DNA of 64,000 nt from an uncultured Gammaproteobacteria bacterium (GTDB taxonomy: Bacteria > Patescibacteriota > Patescibacteriia > CAZSQN01): the NCBI GenBank assembly GCA_964609095.1, contig CAZSQN010000001.1, positions 86,117-150,116 on the forward strand, in the 5' to 3' direction. A program made the translations under genes and the position numbers. Within the stretch, counting starts at the first letter, position 1. The number at the start of each line of letters is the position of its first letter. Under the pieces are notes generated by a model. It searched no databases. It was not told where the DNA came from and saw only the letters and a list, made by a program, of their open reading frames with translations. Below are positions 872 to 56,491 of the stretch, piece by piece.

Positions 872-1083
872 TTGTTAGATTGTTGTATTGTCCCGCGTAC
901 GGGATCCCGCTTTGCGGTGATTATATTGGTTTTGCGTTAGATGGCCGGTAGATTGACAAACAGCTTATTTTTTGGTATTATATTTTGTGCATATTTCGTT
1001 CGTTTTCAATAGATTCCGAGTGAGTCGGATGGCTGCCCCCACACCAATCTTAACAACAACTGTGCTTAAAGCACGACTAAAGG

Positions 1084-1534
1084 CGAAGCCGACTTCGTCT
1101 TTATGGGTACTGATATATTAAGTATGTTGTAAAGAATGGTGTGGGGGAGGAAAGTCCGAACATCGCCCCGTAATATACGGGGAAAAGGCAGTCGCTAACG
1201 GCGACGGGCGCAAGGCAAGCGAGAAAAGAGAGGACAGCTGTTCTCTTTTCTCTCCTTGAACGAGGCCACGGATAGTGCAACAGAAAATATACCGCTTGAA
1301 CCCGAGCGAAAGCGAGGGTGAAATCTTGAGCGAAGTCGAAAGACTTCTTCAAGTCAAGTAAGGTTGAAATCGTGAGGTAAGAGCTCACGCGGGACTGTAA
1401 GTGATTACAGCCGTGGAAAACACCTGCCAGATGCAAGGCCAAGAATGGTAGGCCGCACGAGGTATTGAGCAATCAATACCCCAGAGAGATGGTCATCCTT
1501 CGCAGAAATGCGAAGACAGAATTCGGCTTATAGA
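1084..1534 (+). ncRNA. rnpB: RNase P RNA, bacterial type A
   Basis: Conserved blocks GGAGGAAAGTCCG (1146-1160), ACAGAAAATATACCGC, CGAGGGTGAAATC, GGTAAGAGCTCAC and 3' ACAGAATTCGGCTTAT. P1 pairing aagccga(1086-1092)/tcggctt(1521-1527). Overlapping ORF 1101..1472(-) is spurious. Confidence 0.85.
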
Positions 1535-1612
1535 CTCGCTTGGAATTTATTGAGAATGAAATGTGTTTCGCGTTTAGAGTTTTCTAAACCCCAAACCCTA
1601 AACCCTCTTACA

Positions 1613-12627: not shown

Positions 12628-12766
12628 ATTTTTCCTCCGATTTCAAGGTTCAACGATTCTAATTTAGAGATTAACAGTTCTAATGTTGGGTGTCAAACAA
12701 AAAAACAGCGTTTGGCGCTGTTAATATTAAAATTAAAAATTTTCTTTCTTTACTCCGCCCTTTCTC

Positions 12767-12838
12767 TGCCCCCGCCAAGAATCGAACTTGGATCCCAAGT
12801 TCCGGAAACTTGTATTCTATCCGTTGAACTACAGGGGC
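12767..12838 (-). tRNA. tRNA-Arg (anticodon CCG)
   Basis: Reverse complement folds as a cloverleaf: acceptor GCCCCTG/CGGGGGC, anticodon stem CAAGT/ACTTG with loop TTCCGGA, T-arm CCAAG-TTCGATT-CTTGG. CCA not encoded. Confidence 0.8.
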
Positions 12839-12853
12839 AAGGAAAGAGCGGGG

Positions 12854-12929: not shown

Positions 12930-13931
12930 TCAAGCAGAGCGATGATACGGGCGCAGGCGCTTTAAGAGTGAATATATTTTATAAGAAATCGGCCGCAGAG
13001 GCAACTCTATTGCCTCCGGCAGAGCGACGATCTCTCCGCCTCCGCCCGAGGCGGATCCGCCTTGGGTGGAAAAGCCCTTCTTAAATCTAGTAATTCCCGC
13101 CCAGGCGTGACTTGATTCTTGATTCTTGATTCTTGATTCTAAAGGCGGTGCTATGCCCCAAAAATCATAAAAACCATATCCGGCAAATTTTGCGTTTTTC
13201 ATTATTTCCCAATGCAAAAGATACGGCGCCATCAAGTTTCTTTTTTCGTTGGAGGATGCGCCATGGAGGTAAGTGGCAGTATTCCCAAAGAAATTTATAA
13301 TAGCCGCGGCCAGCGGTTCGTTGTTTTGGTAGGCGACAAAGAGCTTAGTATTCGGCAGAATCCTAAGCATCTCGCGATAATAAGATTCCGAGTGAGCGGA
13401 GAATTTATCCCTCGCTGTTGTTTCTTTCATTAATTTTACAAAATCATCTGCAGGCGCGTTTTCTTTTATAGCGACGCCGTGGCGTTCTGCCAGGCGGATA
13501 TTATATCGTGTTTTTTCATGCATTTCAGCGAGCAGGGCTTCTTCATGTTTGCGGATATCAACGATTAGCGTGTGCTGGGGCTGCCTTGATTTAGCTTTTA
13601 GCTTATAGCTTATAGCTTTTAGCCCGTTATTAGATTCAAGGTGTAAAAATATTCCTTTTGTTTTTTTAAGATCGGAAATAATTGTTTCCATAATTCTTGA
13701 TTCTTGATTCTTGATTCCAATAGGTCCGCGATACAGGTTCCATCCAAACATACCGCCCGGCAGCGGATGTGAAACAATTTGCGCAAGCGCGTCCGGAGTT
13801 TCGTACCGTCGTACCTCGCGCCCGATTGATTTTTGAAACTCGCCCCAGCTCCATGATTGCAAAAATAGTCCCGATCGAGATCGGGAGCTATCATTTAATA
13901 TAAATTTATCCCAAGAGCTTTTGTCTGCCAT
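12930..13931 (-). CDS. FemAB-family peptidyltransferase (peptidoglycan interpeptide bridge formation)
   Basis: FemAB/FemX hallmarks (FLQSWSWGEFQK, YRGP, RYNIRLAERHGV, YLHGASSNEKRNLMAPYLLHWEIMKNAKFAGYGFYDFWGI, RFKKGF). Contains three in-frame heptamer-repeat insertions (see findings). Confidence 0.75.
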   Translation of the reverse strand: MADKSSWDKFILNDSSRSRSGLFLQSWSWGEFQKSIGREVRRYETPDALAQIVSHPLPGGMFGWNLYRGPIGIKNQESRIMETIISDLKKTKGIFLHLESNNGLKAISYKLKAKSRQPQHTLIVDIRKHEEALLAEMHEKTRYNIRLAERHGVAIKENAPADDFVKLMKETTARDKFSAHSESYYREMLRILPNTKLFVAYQNNEPLAAAIINFFGNTATYLHGASSNEKRNLMAPYLLHWEIMKNAKFAGYGFYDFWGIAPPLESRIKNQESSHAWAGITRFKKGFSTQGGSASGGGGEIVALPEAIELPLRPISYKIYSLLKRLRPYHRSA

Positions 13932-13955
13932 ATATTAGACATCTTCACAGGATTA

Positions 13956-13984
13956 TTGACAAAAAGCAAGATTTGTGATAAGTT
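13956..13984 (+). promoter_or_regulatory. sigma70-like promoter (TTGACA-N17-TAAGTT) plus conserved ~60-nt leader, copy A
   Basis: TTGACA at 13956-13961. The whole 13950-14043 block is ~85% identical to 22073-22170. Confidence 0.55.
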
Positions 13985-14040
13985 AACTTAATCGTTCCTT
14001 AACTTCAGAATAAGGAAAATCAAGCCAAAAAGGAGCGCAA

Positions 14041-14676
14041 ATGGACAGGAAGCAGGCAAAAACGCAGACAGGCGCATCGGACACTTCCGGCACTTTGGCC
14101 ATAGCTCGCCGCAACTGGTTCATGAACTGGTACCGCGAGCTTGGTTTTTCCCTTCAGATACCAGTTCCTCCTGTTCCAGATGAGGAGTACAAGAGTAGAA
14201 AGGAACAGGGTCAAGACCTGTTCTATCGTCCTCCAACCTCCGAGGTCTCTTACGAGGCCTTGATGAAGGCGGTTGGACAGGGCAAATGTTGGACTGTCGT
14301 GAACGGGAGCGACAGGAAGAAGATCAAGTGGGAACCTACCCAAACCGGCTACTGGTTCTGGGCCGAAGTTTCCCAAGATTGTCCCCGCCTGGGCACATCC
14401 TGGCATGGGCTCACCCGCACCAAAGAGCAGGGACTGGACTTGCTTTCCTTGCTTTCATTGGAAGAGTATGCGCTTGTCTGGTGGGCGCACAAAGCCGCAA
14501 CCAACGCCATACTTGATACCGGAAATTGGTCTTGGCTTCGTACCCGTTTCAGGGATAGCGCTTTGCATGCCAGCGACTGCTATGGCAGGGTCTGCGTGGA
14601 CGGGTGGGATGCGATCAGCATTGCGTACCCTTATGTCAACATGGGCGGCCGCTCCGCGGAAGTGGTCAAGATGTAA
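14041..14676 (+). CDS. hypothetical Trp-rich protein (GC-rich, foreign composition)
   Basis: 211 aa; SD AAAAAGGAG 8 nt upstream; 13 Trp; markedly higher GC than flanking genes. No recognised domain. Confidence 0.55.
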   Translation: MDRKQAKTQTGASDTSGTLAIARRNWFMNWYRELGFSLQIPVPPVPDEEYKSRKEQGQDLFYRPPTSEVSYEALMKAVGQGKCWTVVNGSDRKKIKWEPTQTGYWFWAEVSQDCPRLGTSWHGLTRTKEQGLDLLSLLSLEEYALVWWAHKAATNAILDTGNWSWLRTRFRDSALHASDCYGRVCVDGWDAISIAYPYVNMGGRSAEVVKM

Positions 14677-15390
14677 CTTGAGTCCTGATTGCTTGTTCCC
14701 CCAGTACTAGAACTTTCGAGTTCAGTACGGGGCTTCGCTTTTGCCCTCTTGTACCTTGTCCCGTTAGAAGCCACATTCTAAACGGGTACAACTTTAAAAT
14801 TTCGTAGGAGCTTTCTATGTTTAGAGCTTCTAACGGGACTCGTGTCCCTTCAACTTTGATTGAAGGGACTTTTAATTTATGTTGGGACTGTCGCCAAATA
14901 CCATTTCTACTGCAATTCTCAAATTTCAGCTGCAAATTTCTAAAAACTCCTCCGCTTATACTGCGTATAAACATCGTCGTTTTTATAAATTTTCGCTTTG
15001 AAATTTGAGAATTTCGTGACGAAAGCGCATTTGGCGACAGTCCCAGAATAGCGGAAAAATTTTTAGTTTCAAAAAATACGATTAAATACAATACTGCAAT
15101 ACTGGGAAGTATTGCAGTATTGTATTTCGGATGGTATTGATGGTCATCGGATGGTTGTCATCGGATGGTGTTGATGGTCAGTTGTCTCATGTGTCGGCAG
15201 GATTATGAGGGCAGGATATTGATACGACAAATTGATCCCGCCCCCGAGAATCGGGGGCCCGCACATGCCTCCAAAATTAAATAATAACAAAAATCAGCTA
15301 TAGCTTAAAATTGTTATTTTAAATATTTATGACATGGGCTTTTTTTTACAACAATTTCGCATCGGCCGCATATTTTTGTTGTAAGAGGGG

Positions 15391-16829: not shown

Positions 16830-17170
16830 TGGTGGAGGCGCCGGGAGTCGAACCCGGGTCCAGAAGAAGTATAGCCAATGCCCTACGCGCGTATCCCGGA
16901 TTTATCAAGCCCGGGCGGCTCTAGTCCCGTCTTTCCGGAACAGCCAGGACAGCCGGTCTTGCCTTGGAGTAACTGCCCGACTCTCCAAGGCCAGCTTCCA
17001 TTTTCGTCGCCTGATTCAACCCCTAGGAAGCGGCGGGATTGGCAGACGTCCGCCTTAGGCGGAAAACGTGGCATTAAGCCGCGTTTCTCGGGTTGCCCGT
17101 TTTTACAAGGCCTCGGGCGCCTTGGCGCGCGCATTGGTGTAACTTCCCCTGTCGAAACCGTTTCGCCCCC
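16830..17170 (-). ncRNA. ssrA: tmRNA (transfer-messenger RNA)
   Basis: 5' GGGGGCGAAACGGTTTCGACAGGGG and 3' tRNA-like end GGGTTCGACTCCCGGCGCCTCCACCA. Internal tag ORF reads ...GNPRNAA* (ends Ala-Ala-TAA). Overlapping ORFs 16883..17134(-) and 16878..17228(+) are spurious. Confidence 0.85.
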
Positions 17171-23266: not shown

Positions 23267-23343
23267 AGGGTAAAGGGGACAGGGTATAGGGTATAGTTTT
23301 TAAAAACTATTTTCTAAACCCTAAACCCTAAACCCTAAACCCT

Positions 23344-23976
23344 ATGGTAAAGGTAATCCCTGCAATTCTGGCAAAGACAAAAGAGGAGTTTGAAAGCAAG
23401 GTTAAGACCGCGGCTGATTTTGCGAGCGAAATCCAGCTGGATATAATGGACGGGAAATTCGTGTCCAATATCACCTGGGGCGCGCCTGAAGAAATAAAAA
23501 AAATGAACCTGCCGCCATTTGAAGCGCATTTAATGATCCAAAATCCGGAGCGGGAAGTTAGCAAATGGGCAGAAGCCGGAGCTAAACGAATCATTGCCCA
23601 TATTGAAGCCATAACCGACCTTCCATTATATATAGAAGCGGTGAAAAAAGCGGGATGCGGGGCCGGAGTGGCCATAAACCCGGAAACATCGGTTGAAGCC
23701 GTCTCTGATTTTCTTTCCAATCTTGACGCCGTGTTGGTGATGGGCGTGAACCCCGGCTTTAGCGGGCAGGAATTTAATCCAACGGCGTTAATAAAAGTTG
23801 CGGAATTAAGAAAATTGAATCAGAATATATCTATAGAAGTTGATGGGGGCGTTTCTTTTGTCAACGCAAAAGAATTGGCCGAAGCCGGGGCTGATGGATT
23901 AGTTGTTGCCAACGCTATTTTTAAATCCGATACGCCAAAAGCGGCTTATGAAAAGCTTTTAACCGCGATTAAATAA
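23344..23976 (+). CDS. rpe: ribulose-phosphate 3-epimerase
   Basis: RPE motifs (IPAILAKT, QLDIMDGKFV, AHLMI, VMGVNPGFSGQ). Confidence 0.8.
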   Translation: MVKVIPAILAKTKEEFESKVKTAADFASEIQLDIMDGKFVSNITWGAPEEIKKMNLPPFEAHLMIQNPEREVSKWAEAGAKRIIAHIEAITDLPLYIEAVKKAGCGAGVAINPETSVEAVSDFLSNLDAVLVMGVNPGFSGQEFNPTALIKVAELRKLNQNISIEVDGGVSFVNAKELAEAGADGLVVANAIFKSDTPKAAYEKLLTAIK

Positions 23977-24236: not shown

Positions 24237-24322
24237 GATTGACAAATTAAAAATGAGGGCATTAAGCCCTTGTTTTTATTTTGGTATAATTCTTAACAGC
24301 TAACAGCTAACAGCTAACAGCG

Positions 24323-28030: not shown

Positions 28031-28900
28031 ATGACGCGCTATGACCTCTCTGCTATTTTGCGGCAGGCGTCAACCGAACGCTGGGCGATGCCGCATTTTA
28101 ATGTTTCCAACCTTGAGCAGTTTAGGGGGGTTTGTTTGGCGGCCGCGGCTCTAAGGTCGCCGCTAATGGTGGGCACTTCTCTCGGGGAAAGACAGTTTAT
28201 CGGCTTGCGCCAGAGCGTGGCGTTGATTAAAGCATTTAGAGAGGAGTTTGGCATTCCTCTTTTTTTGAACGCGGATCATACCGCCTCGGTGGAAGCCGCT
28301 TACGCGGCAGTTGATGCGGGTTATGATTCAATCCATATTGATTTGTCTAAAAAATCATTTATGGAAAATATGGCCGGCACAAAAAAAGTCGTGGAATACG
28401 CGCGCAGGGCAAATCCGGCAATCAGCGTGGAAGGCGAGCTGGGATATCTGGTTACGGAATCATCAAAAGTATATAAAAAAAAGATAAAAGTTGACTCGGA
28501 AACATTTACTAAACCGGATGAGGCGGAAAGATTTGCGGAAGAAACCGGCGTGAATAGGTTTGCTCCGGCAGTTGGCAATTTGCACGGCATTGCCGCCAAT
28601 CGGCCGAAATTGGATTTCGCGCTGATTAAAAAGCTTAGAGAAACAATTCCCATGAGCGTGTCTTTGGTCTTGCATGGCGGCTCCGGCAACTCTCCGGCCG
28701 CTTTCAGAAAGAGCATTGATTTAGGGATTAACAATATCCATATTTCCACGGAATTGCGGCTGGCTTATTTTAAGGCGGTGAAGGCGGCGGTGAAAAAAGA
28801 AGAACTGGCTCCCTACAAGCTTATGTCGCCGGCCGTCGCGGCGGTGCAAAAAAAAGCTGAAGAGTTTATTAAAATTTTTCGGGCCAATAACAGGGTATAG
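28031..28900 (+). CDS. class II fructose/tagatose-bisphosphate aldolase family protein
   Basis: Class II aldolase signatures (LNADHT, ISVEGELG, HGGSG). Confidence 0.75.
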   Translation: MTRYDLSAILRQASTERWAMPHFNVSNLEQFRGVCLAAAALRSPLMVGTSLGERQFIGLRQSVALIKAFREEFGIPLFLNADHTASVEAAYAAVDAGYDSIHIDLSKKSFMENMAGTKKVVEYARRANPAISVEGELGYLVTESSKVYKKKIKVDSETFTKPDEAERFAEETGVNRFAPAVGNLHGIAANRPKLDFALIKKLRETIPMSVSLVLHGGSGNSPAAFRKSIDLGINNIHISTELRLAYFKAVKAAVKKEELAPYKLMSPAVAAVQKKAEEFIKIFRANNRV

Positions 28901-28966
28901 GGACTATGGTAAAGGGTATAGAAATTCACTAAACCCTAAACCCTAAACCCTAAACCCTAAACCCTA

Positions 28967-29935
28967 ATGTACGACATAATTACAATCGGCGCGGCAACCA
29001 AAGACGTTTTTTTGGAAAGCGGCAGTTTTAAATTTATCAAATCGCCGGAGTTTGCCGGAGGCACGGGCGAATGCCTTTCATTTGGTTCTAAAAATGAAGT
29101 CAGGAATATCTTTTTTTCAACCGGCGGCGGAGCCACTAATGCCGCCGTCACGTTTTCCCGCCTGGGCCTCTCTGTCGCGGCTCTTACCAGAGTGGGAAGA
29201 GATTCTTTCGGAGATGATATTATTGCCGCTTTAAAAAACGACAATGTTTCCGTAAAGCTGATTCAGCGCGATCCCGCGCTTAAAACCGCTTACTCAACCT
29301 TGCTTATGCAGGGGCCCGGCGAGAGAACGGTGCTTGTTTATCGCGGCTCGTCAGCAAAAATTAACGCGCGGGAGTTGCGGCAGGTGAGGACAAAGTGGAT
29401 TTACGTGACTTCTCTCGGAGGCCAGATTGATTTGCTTCGGAAAATATGGAGCTGGGCTCGTAAAAATAAAGTAAAAATCGCCTGGAATCCCGGAGGAGAA
29501 GAGCTAAAGTCGGGTTTGGAAAAACTTCTGCCTTTTATAAAACAGTGCGAAGTGTTCAATGTTAATCGCGAAGAAGCCGCTAGGGTTACCGGTTGCGGCT
29601 GGAGAGACAGGGAATGTTTGTTTGCCAATCTCTGCGGCAAGGCCACCTATGTTTTGATCACGGACGGAGAGCGCGGGGCGTATTGTTGCGGCGCCGGTGA
29701 GCGTTTTTTCGCTTCGTCGCTTGGCACCAAACCGAAAAATACGACAGGCGCCGGCGACGCCTTTGGCTCCGCCTTTGTGGCCGGCCTTATTTTAAGAAAC
29801 AGTGTTGATTTTGCTCTGCGGCTCGCCATTTTAAACGCCGACTCTGTTATCAGGCAGATGGGGGCTAAGACGGGAATTTTAAAAAAGTTGCCAAGCAAGG
29901 CAGTTTTATCTAAAATAGAAATAAAGAAACTGTAA
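28967..29935 (+). CDS. PfkB-family carbohydrate kinase (second copy)
   Basis: MYDIITIGAATKDVF N-terminus and TGAGDAFGSAF C-terminal motif. Confidence 0.75.
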   Translation: MYDIITIGAATKDVFLESGSFKFIKSPEFAGGTGECLSFGSKNEVRNIFFSTGGGATNAAVTFSRLGLSVAALTRVGRDSFGDDIIAALKNDNVSVKLIQRDPALKTAYSTLLMQGPGERTVLVYRGSSAKINARELRQVRTKWIYVTSLGGQIDLLRKIWSWARKNKVKIAWNPGGEELKSGLEKLLPFIKQCEVFNVNREEAARVTGCGWRDRECLFANLCGKATYVLITDGERGAYCCGAGERFFASSLGTKPKNTTGAGDAFGSAFVAGLILRNSVDFALRLAILNADSVIRQMGAKTGILKKLPSKAVLSKIEIKKL

Positions 29936-30921: not shown

Positions 30922-30996
30922 ACAATTAAAGCGTTTAGCGATTAGCGTATAGCGTTTAGTTTTTCTAAACCCTATACCCTAAAGTAGAAACTTGTT

Positions 30997-38587: not shown

Positions 38588-38679
38588 CTTAGAGCTTGTG
38601 GCTCGTGGCTCGTGGCTCGTGGCTTGTGGCTTTTAGAAGTTTTAACTATAAGCTAAAAGCTAACAGCTAAAAGCTATTT

Positions 38680-39216: not shown

Positions 39217-39350
39217 GCGGCATTGCCAAGAGAAAGGTTTTTGTGCTAAAAGAGTAGCAGACATTTTTGTCTGTTTTTATTTTAGCGGTTAGCGGTCAGC
39301 GTCAAGCGTTCAGTAAATTTCTAAACGCTATACGCTATACGCTTGAGATT

Positions 39351-41977: not shown

Positions 41978-42700
41978 ATGAGCATTTACACGACAATTTT
42001 TTACCAGCCGATGTTTAACGCCCTGATCTGGTTTTATAATGTGGTCCCAGGGAAAGACATCGGTCTGGCGATTGTTCTTCTTACGGCGCTGCTTAAGATT
42101 TTGCTTTGGCCGTTTTCCATCCAATCTTTGAAATCGCAAAAGGCGATGACCGAGCTTCAGCCCAAGCTCAAGGAGCTTCAGGAAAAATATAAAGGGAAAA
42201 AAGAGGAGCTGGCCAAAGCCACGATGCTGCTTTATTCAAAAGAAAAGGTAAGCCCCTTTTCTTCCTGTCTGCCGCTTTTGGTTCAGCTTCCTTTTCTTAT
42301 AGCGCTCTATCAAGTGCTTCGCGACGGGCTGGCTTCAAAAAAGTTTGAACTGCTTTATTCTTTTATCAGCAATCCCGGGCAGGTTGACCCGACCTTTTTT
42401 GGGATCTTGAATTTGGCGGCCCCGAATTTTATTTTGGCGCTCTTAGCGGGAGGCGCTCAATTTTTGCAATCAAAAATGCTTTCCACCAGGCGCCCGCCGC
42501 GCTCCGTGGCCGGCAAAGAGGGAAGCAAGGACGAAGATACGATGGCGAGGATGAATAAGCAGATGACTTATATGATGCCGGCGATTACGGTTGTGATTTC
42601 CGCCGGGCTTCCGGCCGGACTCGCGCTTTACTGGCTTATTTCAAGTTTGCTCACCGTTGGCCAGCAGGCGCTCTTCTTAAGAACTCGCCATAAGCCGTAA
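41978..42700 (+). CDS. yidC: membrane protein insertase YidC/Oxa1 (short form)
   Basis: YidC core (LLKILLWPF, MTELQPKLKELQEKYK, MLLYSKEKVSPFSSCLPLLVQLPFLIALYQVL). Confidence 0.8.
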   Translation: MSIYTTIFYQPMFNALIWFYNVVPGKDIGLAIVLLTALLKILLWPFSIQSLKSQKAMTELQPKLKELQEKYKGKKEELAKATMLLYSKEKVSPFSSCLPLLVQLPFLIALYQVLRDGLASKKFELLYSFISNPGQVDPTFFGILNLAAPNFILALLAGGAQFLQSKMLSTRRPPRSVAGKEGSKDEDTMARMNKQMTYMMPAITVVISAGLPAGLALYWLISSLLTVGQQALFLRTRHKP

Positions 42701-42738
42701 GCCATAAGCATACAGCTTAAAGCTTACGGCAAAATATT

Positions 42739-45754: not shown

Positions 45755-46042
45755 ATGAATGTACGTCCTCTTGGAGACAGAGTGATTGTGCGGCCTATTA
45801 AGGAGGAAGAGGCCACCAAGGCCGGTATTATTCTCCCCGATACCGCCAAGGAAAAGCCGGAACGCGGCGAAGTTATCGCCGTTGGTCCTGGCAAAATGCT
45901 TGAAAACGGAACGCGCGTGGCGATTTCCGTTAAAGCGGGAGAGAAAGTATTGTTTAAAAAATACAGCCCTGACGAACTTAAGGTCGAAGGTCAGGAGGTC
46001 TATGTGCTGCGGGAGGAGGATTTACTCGCGGTAATCGAATAG
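45755..46042 (+). CDS. groES: co-chaperonin GroES
   Basis: MNVRPLGDRVIVRP...GIILPDTAKEKP. 95 aa. Confidence 0.9.
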   Translation: MNVRPLGDRVIVRPIKEEEATKAGIILPDTAKEKPERGEVIAVGPGKMLENGTRVAISVKAGEKVLFKKYSPDELKVEGQEVYVLREEDLLAVIE

Positions 46043-46106
46043 CCATAAGCCCTAAGCTATATGCCATAAGCATATAGCTTACAGCCTACGGCTTACAGCC
46101 AACACT

Positions 46107-50551: not shown

Positions 50552-50783
50552 CCAATCCCGAATACCGAAAAAATAACTAATACCCAATAAATATCTAATG
50601 TCTAATTGCTCTAGATAAAGATTAAAGATATAAATCCGAATATCGAAATTCGAAACTCGAAACAATGCTCAAAATCATAATTTTCAAATTCTCAAAACGT
50701 TTTGAACATTTGAACTTTAGATATTTGAATTTGTTTCGGATTTCGGGCTTCGGATTTCGAGTTTTAATTCTTTAAAGTGCGGT

Positions 50784-55988: not shown

Positions 55989-56033
55989 GGTTTAGGGTAA
56001 ATCTAAACGCTATACGCTAACCGCTAAACGCTT

Positions 56034-56432
56034 ATGAAGTATCTAGGAATTGACCATGGCGGAAAAAGAATAGGTTTAGCCATTGGCGATGACGAAACGC
56101 GCGTCGCCAGCCCGTTAGAAGTGGTTGAAGCGGATTCTAACGAGGAGGCCGTTGCCGCAATTGGTTTGATTATAAAAGAAGAAGGAATTGATAAAATAAT
56201 TTTGGGTCTGCCTCTATCCCTCAAAGGAGAAGAAGGAGCGCAGGCGGCTCGCGTGCGCGAGTTTGGAAACGGATTGAGCAAGCTGTCCAAGATTGACGTT
56301 ATCTATGAGGACGAACGGCTTTCTTCCAAAATGGCAGACGCGCTCCTAAAAGAAGCGTTGCCGGAGAAGCGGGACGCCGTGGCGGCGATGGTGATACTGC
56401 AATCTTATTTAGATAAATTGCGTAAAGTATAA
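56034..56432 (+). CDS. ruvX: Holliday junction resolvase RuvX (YqgF)
   Basis: MKYLGIDHGGKRIGLAIGD...GLPL is RNase H-like YqgF. Confidence 0.8.
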   Translation: MKYLGIDHGGKRIGLAIGDDETRVASPLEVVEADSNEEAVAAIGLIIKEEGIDKIILGLPLSLKGEEGAQAARVREFGNGLSKLSKIDVIYEDERLSSKMADALLKEALPEKRDAVAAMVILQSYLDKLRKV

Positions 56433-56491
56433 AACATGAAACCTGAAACATGATTTGTGTTCTATGTTTCATGCTTCATGCCGTGTGAAAT

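Follow-up and report, generated by a model that had tools for sequence, protein, structure and literature searches.

In-frame heptamer arrays and a miniature hairpin element in a FemAB-family gene of a Patescibacteria genome: probable tolerated copies of a widespread repeat class

A FemAB-family gene (femAB) encoded in a 64-kb stretch of contig CAZSQN010000001.1, hereafter the window (the whole stretch of DNA that was analysed, 64,000 nucleotides), carries three arrays of 7-nt tandem repeats that are translated in frame together with the enzyme. Our preferred explanation, to which we give a probability of roughly 0.6, is that these arrays are tolerated coding copies of a lineage-wide class of heptamer repeats, accompanied in the same gene by a miniature hairpin element. 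In this genome, the heptamer class mainly fills the short intergenic spacers, and copies also survive within genes, always in frame. A DNA-level process, blind to coding, could make the arrays and keep them uniform, either through slippage or through template switching with a 7-nt step, plus some copying between the arrays of one genome. The arrays would not have any switching role, and the encoded peptides (GIKNQESRI, LKAISYKLKAK and ESRIKNQES) look like loop filler that the protein tolerates. Another, smaller class, made of tandem-paired 15-nt GC-rich hairpins, behaves alike.

All the repeat elements, named here sites A to E (Table 1), lie in an uninterrupted open reading frame (ORF) of 333 amino acids, at positions 12930-13931 of the minus strand. 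Tandem Repeats Finder (TRF) located the three arrays within a few bases of the positions given by the first-pass annotation of this sequence, which had described them as in-frame repeats inside otherwise conserved FemAB blocks; they are indeed in frame, lie between conserved blocks and derive from repeats rather than from ordinary coding sequence. At site A, the TRF call is ATTCTTG x3.6 (13693-13717, 100% match), with AATCAAG as the unit of the coding strand. The same unit forms site C, called as CTTGATT x4.3 (13111-13140, 100% match), which reads (AATCAAG)x4.3 in the coding strand after a CCTTTAG lead-in, and gives the array peptide LESRIKNQESS. Site B, called as TTTAGCT x4.9 (13590-13623, 92% match), shows the coding-strand series CTAAAAG CTATAAG CTATAAG CTAAAAG CTAAA (consensus CTAWAAG), interrupted at two positions, and the array translates to GLKAISYKLKAK. 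Site D, overlooked in the first-pass annotation, was detected as an inverted-repeat pair and consists of a tandem pair of 15-nt hairpins, (TCCRCC NNN GGCGGA)x2. Site E is a possible fifth element, a hairpin that would replace the EHAPRSG of most orthologs, and is less certain than the other sites. The arrays are far above chance expectation: the window contains nine exact period-7 arrays of at least 2.6 copies against 0.0 in shuffled sequences, and 2, 1 and 1 arrays for periods 5, 6 and 8, respectively. Moreover, the AATCAAG dimer pattern CTTGATTCTTGATT occurs 7 times with up to two mismatches, against 0.97 expected, and its exact matches are all in femAB.

Table 1. Repeat elements within the femAB gene of the window (positions of the window; residues of the 333-aa protein)
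Site	Position	Strand	Description
A	13692-13718	minus	residues 72-80 (GIKNQESRI), right behind the conserved RGPI
B	13587-13625	minus	residues 103-115 (GLKAISYKLKAKS), ahead of RQPQ
C	13110-13145	minus	residues 263-274 (PLESRIKNQESS), between FWGIAP and HAWAGITRFKKGF
D	13041-13070	minus	30-nt double hairpin, residues 288-297 (STQGGSASGG), between RFKKGF and GGE
E (possible)	13869-13886	minus	8-bp-stem hairpin TCCCGATC-GA-GATCGGGA, residues about 16-21 (SRSRSG)

The clearest mark of translation on these arrays is the way in which they avoid stop codons. A 7-nt unit is read in the three frames over three copies, and consequently any stop triplet in the unit falls in frame every three units. Among 54 coding arrays, 17 have a consensus unit that contains a stop, and the 19 in-frame stops that would result are all broken (19/19), by one substitution each. 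Stop-breaking changes account for 39% of all deviations from the consensus, in 10% of the positions, and perfect arrays are found for 9 of the 37 stop-free units versus none of the 17 stop-containing ones. At site B of the window, the alternation CTAAAAG/CTATAAG/CTATAAG/CTAAAAG, with either A or T at unit position 4, is the exact pattern that keeps TAA out of frame, while in the ortholog of locus L085 TTCTAA has changed to TTTCAA at the sole dangerous position. Selection keeps the total length a multiple of three and breaks the in-frame stop units, and these edits indicate that the arrays are DNA-level repeats shaped afterwards by translation. When the regions of the femAB mRNA that contain sites A+B, C and D were folded, the z-scores were only -1.5, -0.2 and -1.7, which are not significant, and for this reason we do not claim a structural role for the coding arrays.

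A comparison with nine orthologs (55-77% protein identity, with the codons threaded onto the protein alignment; ten genes with the one in the window) points to different ages for the different sites. These close orthologs were found through exact-protein look-ups only, which cannot return frameshifted variants; the metagenomes of the Joint Genome Institute (JGI) gave no close relative above 47% identity, and a scan of genome contigs gave none above 43% among the matches listed. Heptamer arrays with different units do occur in the orthologs. Site B holds an array of 4-5 units in all ten genes, with a length constant to within one codon and units (CTAWAAG, CTACAAG, CTAAATT, TTTCGGA, CTACAGW and CTAYACC) that are mostly one or two substitutions apart and in the same register, so that it looks like an old array in concerted evolution and not like ten separate insertions. 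Site A carries an array in eight of the ten genes, with GGAATCY, GGAATWA, GGGTTTA and ACAAGRR among the other units. The initial description of the three arrays as insertions must then be restricted, as A and B are not recent insertions peculiar to this gene, and it holds for site C. Of the ten genes, those of the window and L087 alone have this block (+21 nt), in place of a conserved E-N-E-P-N that eight of the nine orthologs, and also distant homologs, keep as such or in a similar form; judging from the alignment, site C is a derived insertion. Site D is missing from eight of the nine close orthologs and occurs at the same codon in L088, whereas site E, in the codon alignment, is common to the window and L085 only. 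In L001, L004, L086-L088 and L090, which do not have element E, the conserved peptide P-R-S-G-A at window residues 16-22 is encoded by a 15-nt hairpin, GCCCCG-AAG-CGGGGC, which hardly varies at its third codon positions in seven genes, against about 50% identity at third positions elsewhere.

The elements coincide with the parts of the protein that are modelled with low confidence. In an AlphaFold2 (AF2) model obtained with a 25-sequence alignment as input, with a mean predicted local distance difference test (pLDDT) score of 88, the 10-residue blocks with low pLDDT are the five inserts, the C-terminal tail aside (block 321-330 at 78, with residues 330-333 below 50). Mean values are 80 for site A (block 71-80, which runs into the start of helix 77-88), 73 for site B (block 101-110), about 60 for site C (blocks 261-280), 54 for site D (block 291-300, with residues 292-297 below 50) and 74 for site E (block 11-20). 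The inserts are mostly found between secondary-structure elements, at loop positions after RGPI, before RQPQ and on either side of the TRFKKGF motif. According to the model, inserts A-E occupy poorly ordered, tolerant loops.

Heptamer arrays are not peculiar to femAB, and abound both in the window, which is our sample of this genome, and in 84 other loci reached through FemAB homologs (1.7 Mb, mostly from Patescibacteria). The first-pass annotation had overlooked their spread over the window. TRF reported 32 entries of period 7 in the window, together with one of period 6 and five of period 8. Period 7 is also the commonest in the 84 loci, with 306 entries against 74 and 121 for periods 6 and 8, and with 126 against 3 and 11 at scores of at least 40. 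This excess is present in every GC class. The set includes three Chloroflexi/Anaerolineales loci, two of them without any period-7 array and the third with two. Units in the window include CTAAACC, AGCGTTT, GCTCGTG, AAATCCG, CTAAAAG and AAACATG, and several recur (AAACCCT and AAAAGCT three times each, and five further units twice each). Between arrays of the same locus, 6.8% of the pairs have an identical unit, versus 0.9% of the pairs between loci.

An overlay with the long ORFs shows that nearly all the arrays of the window outside femAB lie in short intergenic spacers. Many of them form inverted pairs, and hairpins with stems of heptamer units are predicted for eight of the ten sets folded (z-scores from -2.8 to -7.2). 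Such inverted pairs occur at 23267-23344, 28900-28967, 30930-30983, 38594-38676, 39282-39343, 42687-42735, 46041-46100, 50632-50759 and 56432-56482; the two units of a pair differ but are partly complementary (AGGGTAT with CTAAACC, for example), which results in long hairpins with a mismatch every seven bases. The minimum free energies of the two strands of the intergenic hairpins did not show a consistent preference, and with no strand bias a function at the RNA level is indistinguishable from one at the DNA level. At least five arrays (23314-23344, 24294-24321, 28929-28967, 38646-38676 and 56003-56032) end 0-3 bases from a start codon, and no Shine-Dalgarno sequence can be seen there. As TAA is part of their units, every frame meets a stop within three copies, just ahead of the ATG; by analogy with what has been proposed for the TAACTGA repeats discussed below, these arrays could assist termination-reinitiation or bind a protein. 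The unit CTAAACC (the same as CCCTAAA or TTTAGGG), one of the two commonest in the window, is found at 1584-1606, 23314-23344, 28929-28967 and 30965-30983, is also the unit at site A of L089-L091, and is among the commonest in the other loci; its match to the plant-type telomere repeat is probably a coincidence. The array at 1584 follows the gene of the RNase P RNA (1080-1546, plus strand), where a match of 467 nt to a model of 367 positions implies about 100 nt of extra sequence in that gene. A search against Rfam found no family at any array.

The in-frame arrays are likewise a widespread phenomenon. A set of 116 full-length femAB genes yielded 43 with one or more period-7 arrays, with hot spots at residues 71-78 (about 24 arrays), 105-110 (about 29), 155-159 and 268-269 of the window protein, and with units that differ between lineages. 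Three arrays appear again in L142 and L143, whose femAB genes are about 30% identical to the one in the window; in the distant femAB at 1798-2985 of L142, two of the three share one unit. Other genomes have in-frame arrays in genes for DNA polymerase I, two class I aminoacyl-tRNA synthetases, a Mur ligase, TsaD, Fpg, UvrB, pyruvate kinase, a GT4 glycosyltransferase and TruB. The Mur ligase of L080 (4330-5688) alone holds three, and in L077 (10001-10966 and 17584-19080) the unit AATTTCC, with peptide NFQFPIS, appears twice in femAB and again in pyruvate kinase.

The hairpin element of site D is dispersed too. Allowing up to four substitutions, nine distinct loci other than the window contain it, and three of these carry it in frame inside a gene. 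A copy in L074 lies in frame in another gene (STKGGSASGG) and is identical at 29 of the 30 positions, with equal loop bases, while L060 has its copy at a different site of femAB; copies outside long ORFs occur in L018, L047, L049, L074 and L103, and those in L049 and L074 have heptamer-like flanks. Hairpins and arrays are also found one inside the other, as in L087, with a double hairpin within the heptamer array of site B, and at site A of L163, where the GC-rich hairpin CCGGCCTCGCCCCGGCTCGACCGAGGGCGGGC lies between AAATCTC and CAAAACT units. When tandem 15-nt hairpins were scanned for generically, N runs and AT-rich matches dominated the output, and only GC-rich matches were used. In the window, the tmRNA gene (16830-17170, minus strand) contains at 17049-17063 a perfect 15-nt hairpin, TCCGCCTTAGGCGGA, with exactly the form of one half of the site-D element; we did not count it as a copy, as it is inside the tmRNA gene and is probably a native helix.

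Regarding the host gene, its product is a FemAB/FemX-family protein, predicted to be of the class of aminoacyl-tRNA-dependent peptidyltransferases. It matches Pfam PF02388 (FemAB) with a score of 112.5 bits (E=2.7e-32), above the curated cut-off of 24, and Acetyltransf_6 as a second family (E=1.3e-11). More than 4000 homologs exist, the named ones mainly from Patescibacteria. In a 25-sequence alignment, the protein keeps all 38 invariant columns of the family, and the motifs KTRYN, TATYLHGAS and TRFKKGF are intact. The AF2 model shows the two-GNAT-domain fold of FemX, with 6snr (E=9e-21) and the W. viridescens FemX structures 1ne9 and 4ii9 as the best Foldseek matches, at template modelling (TM) scores of about 0.7. 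An identical 333-aa protein exists in a second NCBI record (P0121), which makes it unlikely that the arrays are an assembly slip. A tRNA-Arg(CCG) gene (12766-12839, minus strand) is found about 90 nt downstream of the femAB stop codon. On the other side, ruvA adjoins or nearly adjoins femAB in most of the close orthologs with a recovered upstream region; in the window, about 1.45 kb (13932-15390) separates the two genes, with a 211-aa ORF (14041-14676, plus strand) and a 141-aa ORF, neither with a Pfam match, and this segment looks like an insertion into the ruvA-femAB pair.

Several observations speak against the idea of tolerated copies. In the pairs of genes that share an element, its DNA is better conserved than the rest of the host gene (Table 2), more than would be expected of neutral filler. 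Sites C, D and E are each shared with one ortholog of nine, never the closest one, and at exactly the same codon, which random insertion does not predict. The density of arrays in femAB is 4.7-9 times that of the other long ORFs of the same loci: 5.6 arrays per 10 kb versus 1.2, with 7.05 outside ORFs, or 3.95, 0.44 and 2.57, respectively, at scores of at least 40; these femAB counts are not independent, since part of the excess is the inheritance of old sites. Finally, no copying mechanism or enzyme has been identified, and no search for a candidate enzyme was made.

Table 2. Nucleotide identity of the elements and of the remaining gene in pairs of femAB genes that share them (p for all positions)
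Element	Pair	Element, all positions	Rest of gene, all positions	Element, third positions	Rest of gene, third positions	p
A+B	window, L001	58/63	74%	19/21	54%	3e-4
C	window, L087	30/33	69%	10/11	49%	0.003
D	window, L088	27/30	59%	9/10	33%	3e-4
E	window, L085	34/36	70%	10/12	51%	5e-4

The excess conservation leaves room for a constraint at the nucleotide level, or for an active copying with preferred sites. Arrays in the L089-L091 clade are conserved no better than their gene. A simple recombination tract is an unlikely cause of the patchy elements, because the window and L088 show no unusual similarity in the sequence that borders site D. Recombination within a population can be seen elsewhere, in two femAB alleles of one 90% cluster (L166, 1005-1913, and L092, 419-1348). 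These alleles are more than 90% identical overall, with nt 1-419 and the last 75 nt or so (from about nt 854) identical and about 85% identity between these segments, and they differ at site C, where one has (CTACAAG)x4 and the other a GC-rich hairpin; two further members of the cluster are reciprocal mosaics, which indicates recombination within the population.

Among the alternatives, the least improbable would be a sequence-specific function at the DNA or RNA level, with the repeats as active miniature mobile elements rather than passive products of slippage. They could be, for example, sites for a single-strand-binding protein of the cold-shock/S1 type, with one heptamer per monomer, or the targets or products of a dedicated copying enzyme. 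Conservation above the synonymous background and identical elements at the same codon in non-sister orthologs speak for it, as do a 30-nt element found almost unchanged, loop bases included, in unrelated genes and genomes, the insertion of GC-rich hairpins within heptamer arrays in L087 and L163, and unit families specific to each genome; regulator binding has indeed been proposed for intergenic heptamer repeats (PMC4679880). Quite different units are, however, found at the same site across lineages, so that no fixed sequence is required there, and the coding arrays without significant RNA structure, the intergenic hairpins without a consistent strand bias and the ordinary conservation in L089-L091 count against it; no candidate enzyme was found, and none was searched for. 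We regard this possibility as improbable, and little more can be said for its broadest form, an active system of miniature elements in Patescibacteria, in which heptamer arrays, and tandem 15-nt hairpins inserting into them, would be spread to preferred sites by a dedicated copying machinery. An adaptive origin of the loops seems somewhat less probable. Repeats would offer a cheap way to generate new surface peptides on FemAB, and their turnover would be favoured, for instance for the escape from an inhibitor, a phage or a host factor. Close relatives do show very different peptides at the hot spots, the two alleles just described differ at site C within a recombinant mosaic gene, and femAB is enriched for arrays. 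Arrays of the same kind occur, though, in polymerases and synthetases, and the peptides are dictated by a 7-nt unit read in three frames, with no visible preference for any amino acid. FemAB enzymes are cytoplasmic, and act on lipid II or UDP-MurNAc-peptide with aminoacyl-tRNA as a substrate, which leaves their loops out of reach of outside agents.

The first-pass annotation had suggested instead a potential phase-variation switch for a peptidoglycan-bridge enzyme. In such a scheme, slipped-strand mispairing would add or remove one unit, and some of the cells would lose or regain the enzyme. The arithmetic behind it is correct, as one unit gained or lost does shift the frame. The repeats are perfect in two of the three arrays, femAB exceeds other ORFs in its number of arrays and belongs to the cell-envelope genes, among which contingency loci are usually found, and units have stayed uniform within each array despite long divergence, implying that slippage or conversion continues to some extent. 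Yet the arrays have only 3.6-4.9 copies, array B is interrupted, and not one of 166 femAB loci has a frameshift at an array, in a count that includes a tblastn search of all the fetched loci with six diverse FemAB queries. The single frameshift among the 166 (L163, 660-830) maps near nt 670-690, outside the repeats. Loci matching from near residue 118 were considered as frameshifts and proved to have divergent N-termini that remain in frame, while short cluster members (97-145 aa), considered as truncations at an array, were N- or C-terminal fragments. The length of site B stays within one codon in the ten genes even as its unit changes, essential genes hold arrays of the same kind, and the identical protein in two NCBI records is weak evidence of stability. 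The heptanucleotide switch of NeuO in E. coli K1 provides a benchmark, with 3-53 copies (mode 20) and 65.6% of 64 genomes in the OFF state (PMC13001214). Both systems have a 7-nt unit inside a coding sequence and a full-length protein in one of three length classes, but the arrays described here show neither a long uninterrupted tract nor OFF alleles or copy differences other than multiples of three, and ortholog lengths are stable. A switch is thus very improbable in our opinion. Even harder to sustain is that the gene is decaying, as also suggested at first, or that the repeats are artefacts of assembly. Repeat-rich genes can be pseudogenes, and most of the data are metagenome assemblies; against this, the ORF is full-length with its invariant residues kept and a confident model of the FemX fold, the second record has the same protein, and homologous arrays are present in dozens of independent assemblies.

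Tolerated heptamer and hairpin copies resemble, each in some respects, other repeats of bacteria. Rickettsia palindromic elements (RPEs) are selfish palindromes of ~100-150 bp, restricted to one genus, that insert in frame in housekeeping genes, at surface loops and with a patchy distribution among orthologs. The parallel with RPEs drawn in the first-pass annotation holds for this behaviour (in-frame insertion in conserved genes and tolerated loops, patchy among orthologs) and does not extend to the sequences, which are here direct-repeat arrays of 25-36 nt without significant structure, plus hairpin doublets of 30 nt, with site D as the only palindromic one. In Nostoc, Elhai and colleagues reportedly found, in 2008, small dispersed repeats of 21-27 nt associated with stem-loops and heptamer repeat arrays. 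The likeness lies in near-identical dispersed copies below 40 nt and an association with heptamer arrays, while the present element consists of two 15-nt hairpins in tandem and frequently undergoes translation.

An excess of heptameric simple sequence repeats in many bacteria, reported in 2007, and the short tandemly repeated repetitive (STRR) sequences of cyanobacteria are on record (cited in PMC4692102). The likeness to STRR sequences, by kind and not by sequence, includes a 7-nt unit with few tandem copies per site, many sites and own unit families in each genome, and mostly intergenic locations, some as inverted pairs; at least three tandem copies (92-100% match), a period-7 excess and recurring units are all found here. 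The units of the present arrays are, in contrast, A/T-rich and varied rather than few and G-rich, and many are translated in frame at conserved loop positions. In Geobacter metallireducens, an element of four heptamers occurs at 49 sites, both between and within genes, and some genes contain several (PMC2700814). Compared by description only, it agrees with our arrays in having about four copies, inside and between genes and several per gene, and differs in its single GC-rich unit family, which was proposed as a regulatory RNA element, in an account without comparative evidence on loops, frame or unit turnover. The TAACTGA repeats of Beggiatoaceae, cyanobacteria and Bacteroidetes are located just upstream of start codons and have been proposed as regulator binding sites (PMC4679880). 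They share with our intergenic arrays the 2-6 copies ending a few bases from a start codon and the TAA in the unit, which makes forward copies untranslatable without changes; however, they have one fixed unit that is essentially excluded from coding sequence, whereas here TAA-containing units enter genes and have their in-frame stops edited out. Our literature searches gave no report of heptamer repeats for Patescibacteria, which is not proof that none exists, and three features appear to be undescribed so far: the conserved hot spots where in-frame arrays change their units, the systematic edits that avoid stops, and the hairpin doublets that accompany the arrays.

For the annotation of these genomes, peptides of Patescibacteria with a periodicity of seven residues should be taken as translated DNA repeats, and not as functional motifs, coiled-coil heptads or signs of decay. 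The proposal that this cell-wall enzyme is phase-variable should be dropped unless evidence from reads comes to support it. Although these genomes are streamlined and their spacers very short, they retain many heptamer arrays and tiny hairpin elements, and admit them even to essential genes. The conservation at the DNA level and the recurrence at the same codon are testable hints of active copying, which, if true, would represent a new way of making protein insertions, in a large and little-known part of the bacterial tree. An active system of this kind would explain why some elements look younger or more constrained than their host genes, and why they recur at the same codon in separate lineages, and it would amount to a phylum-wide generator of protein loop insertions.

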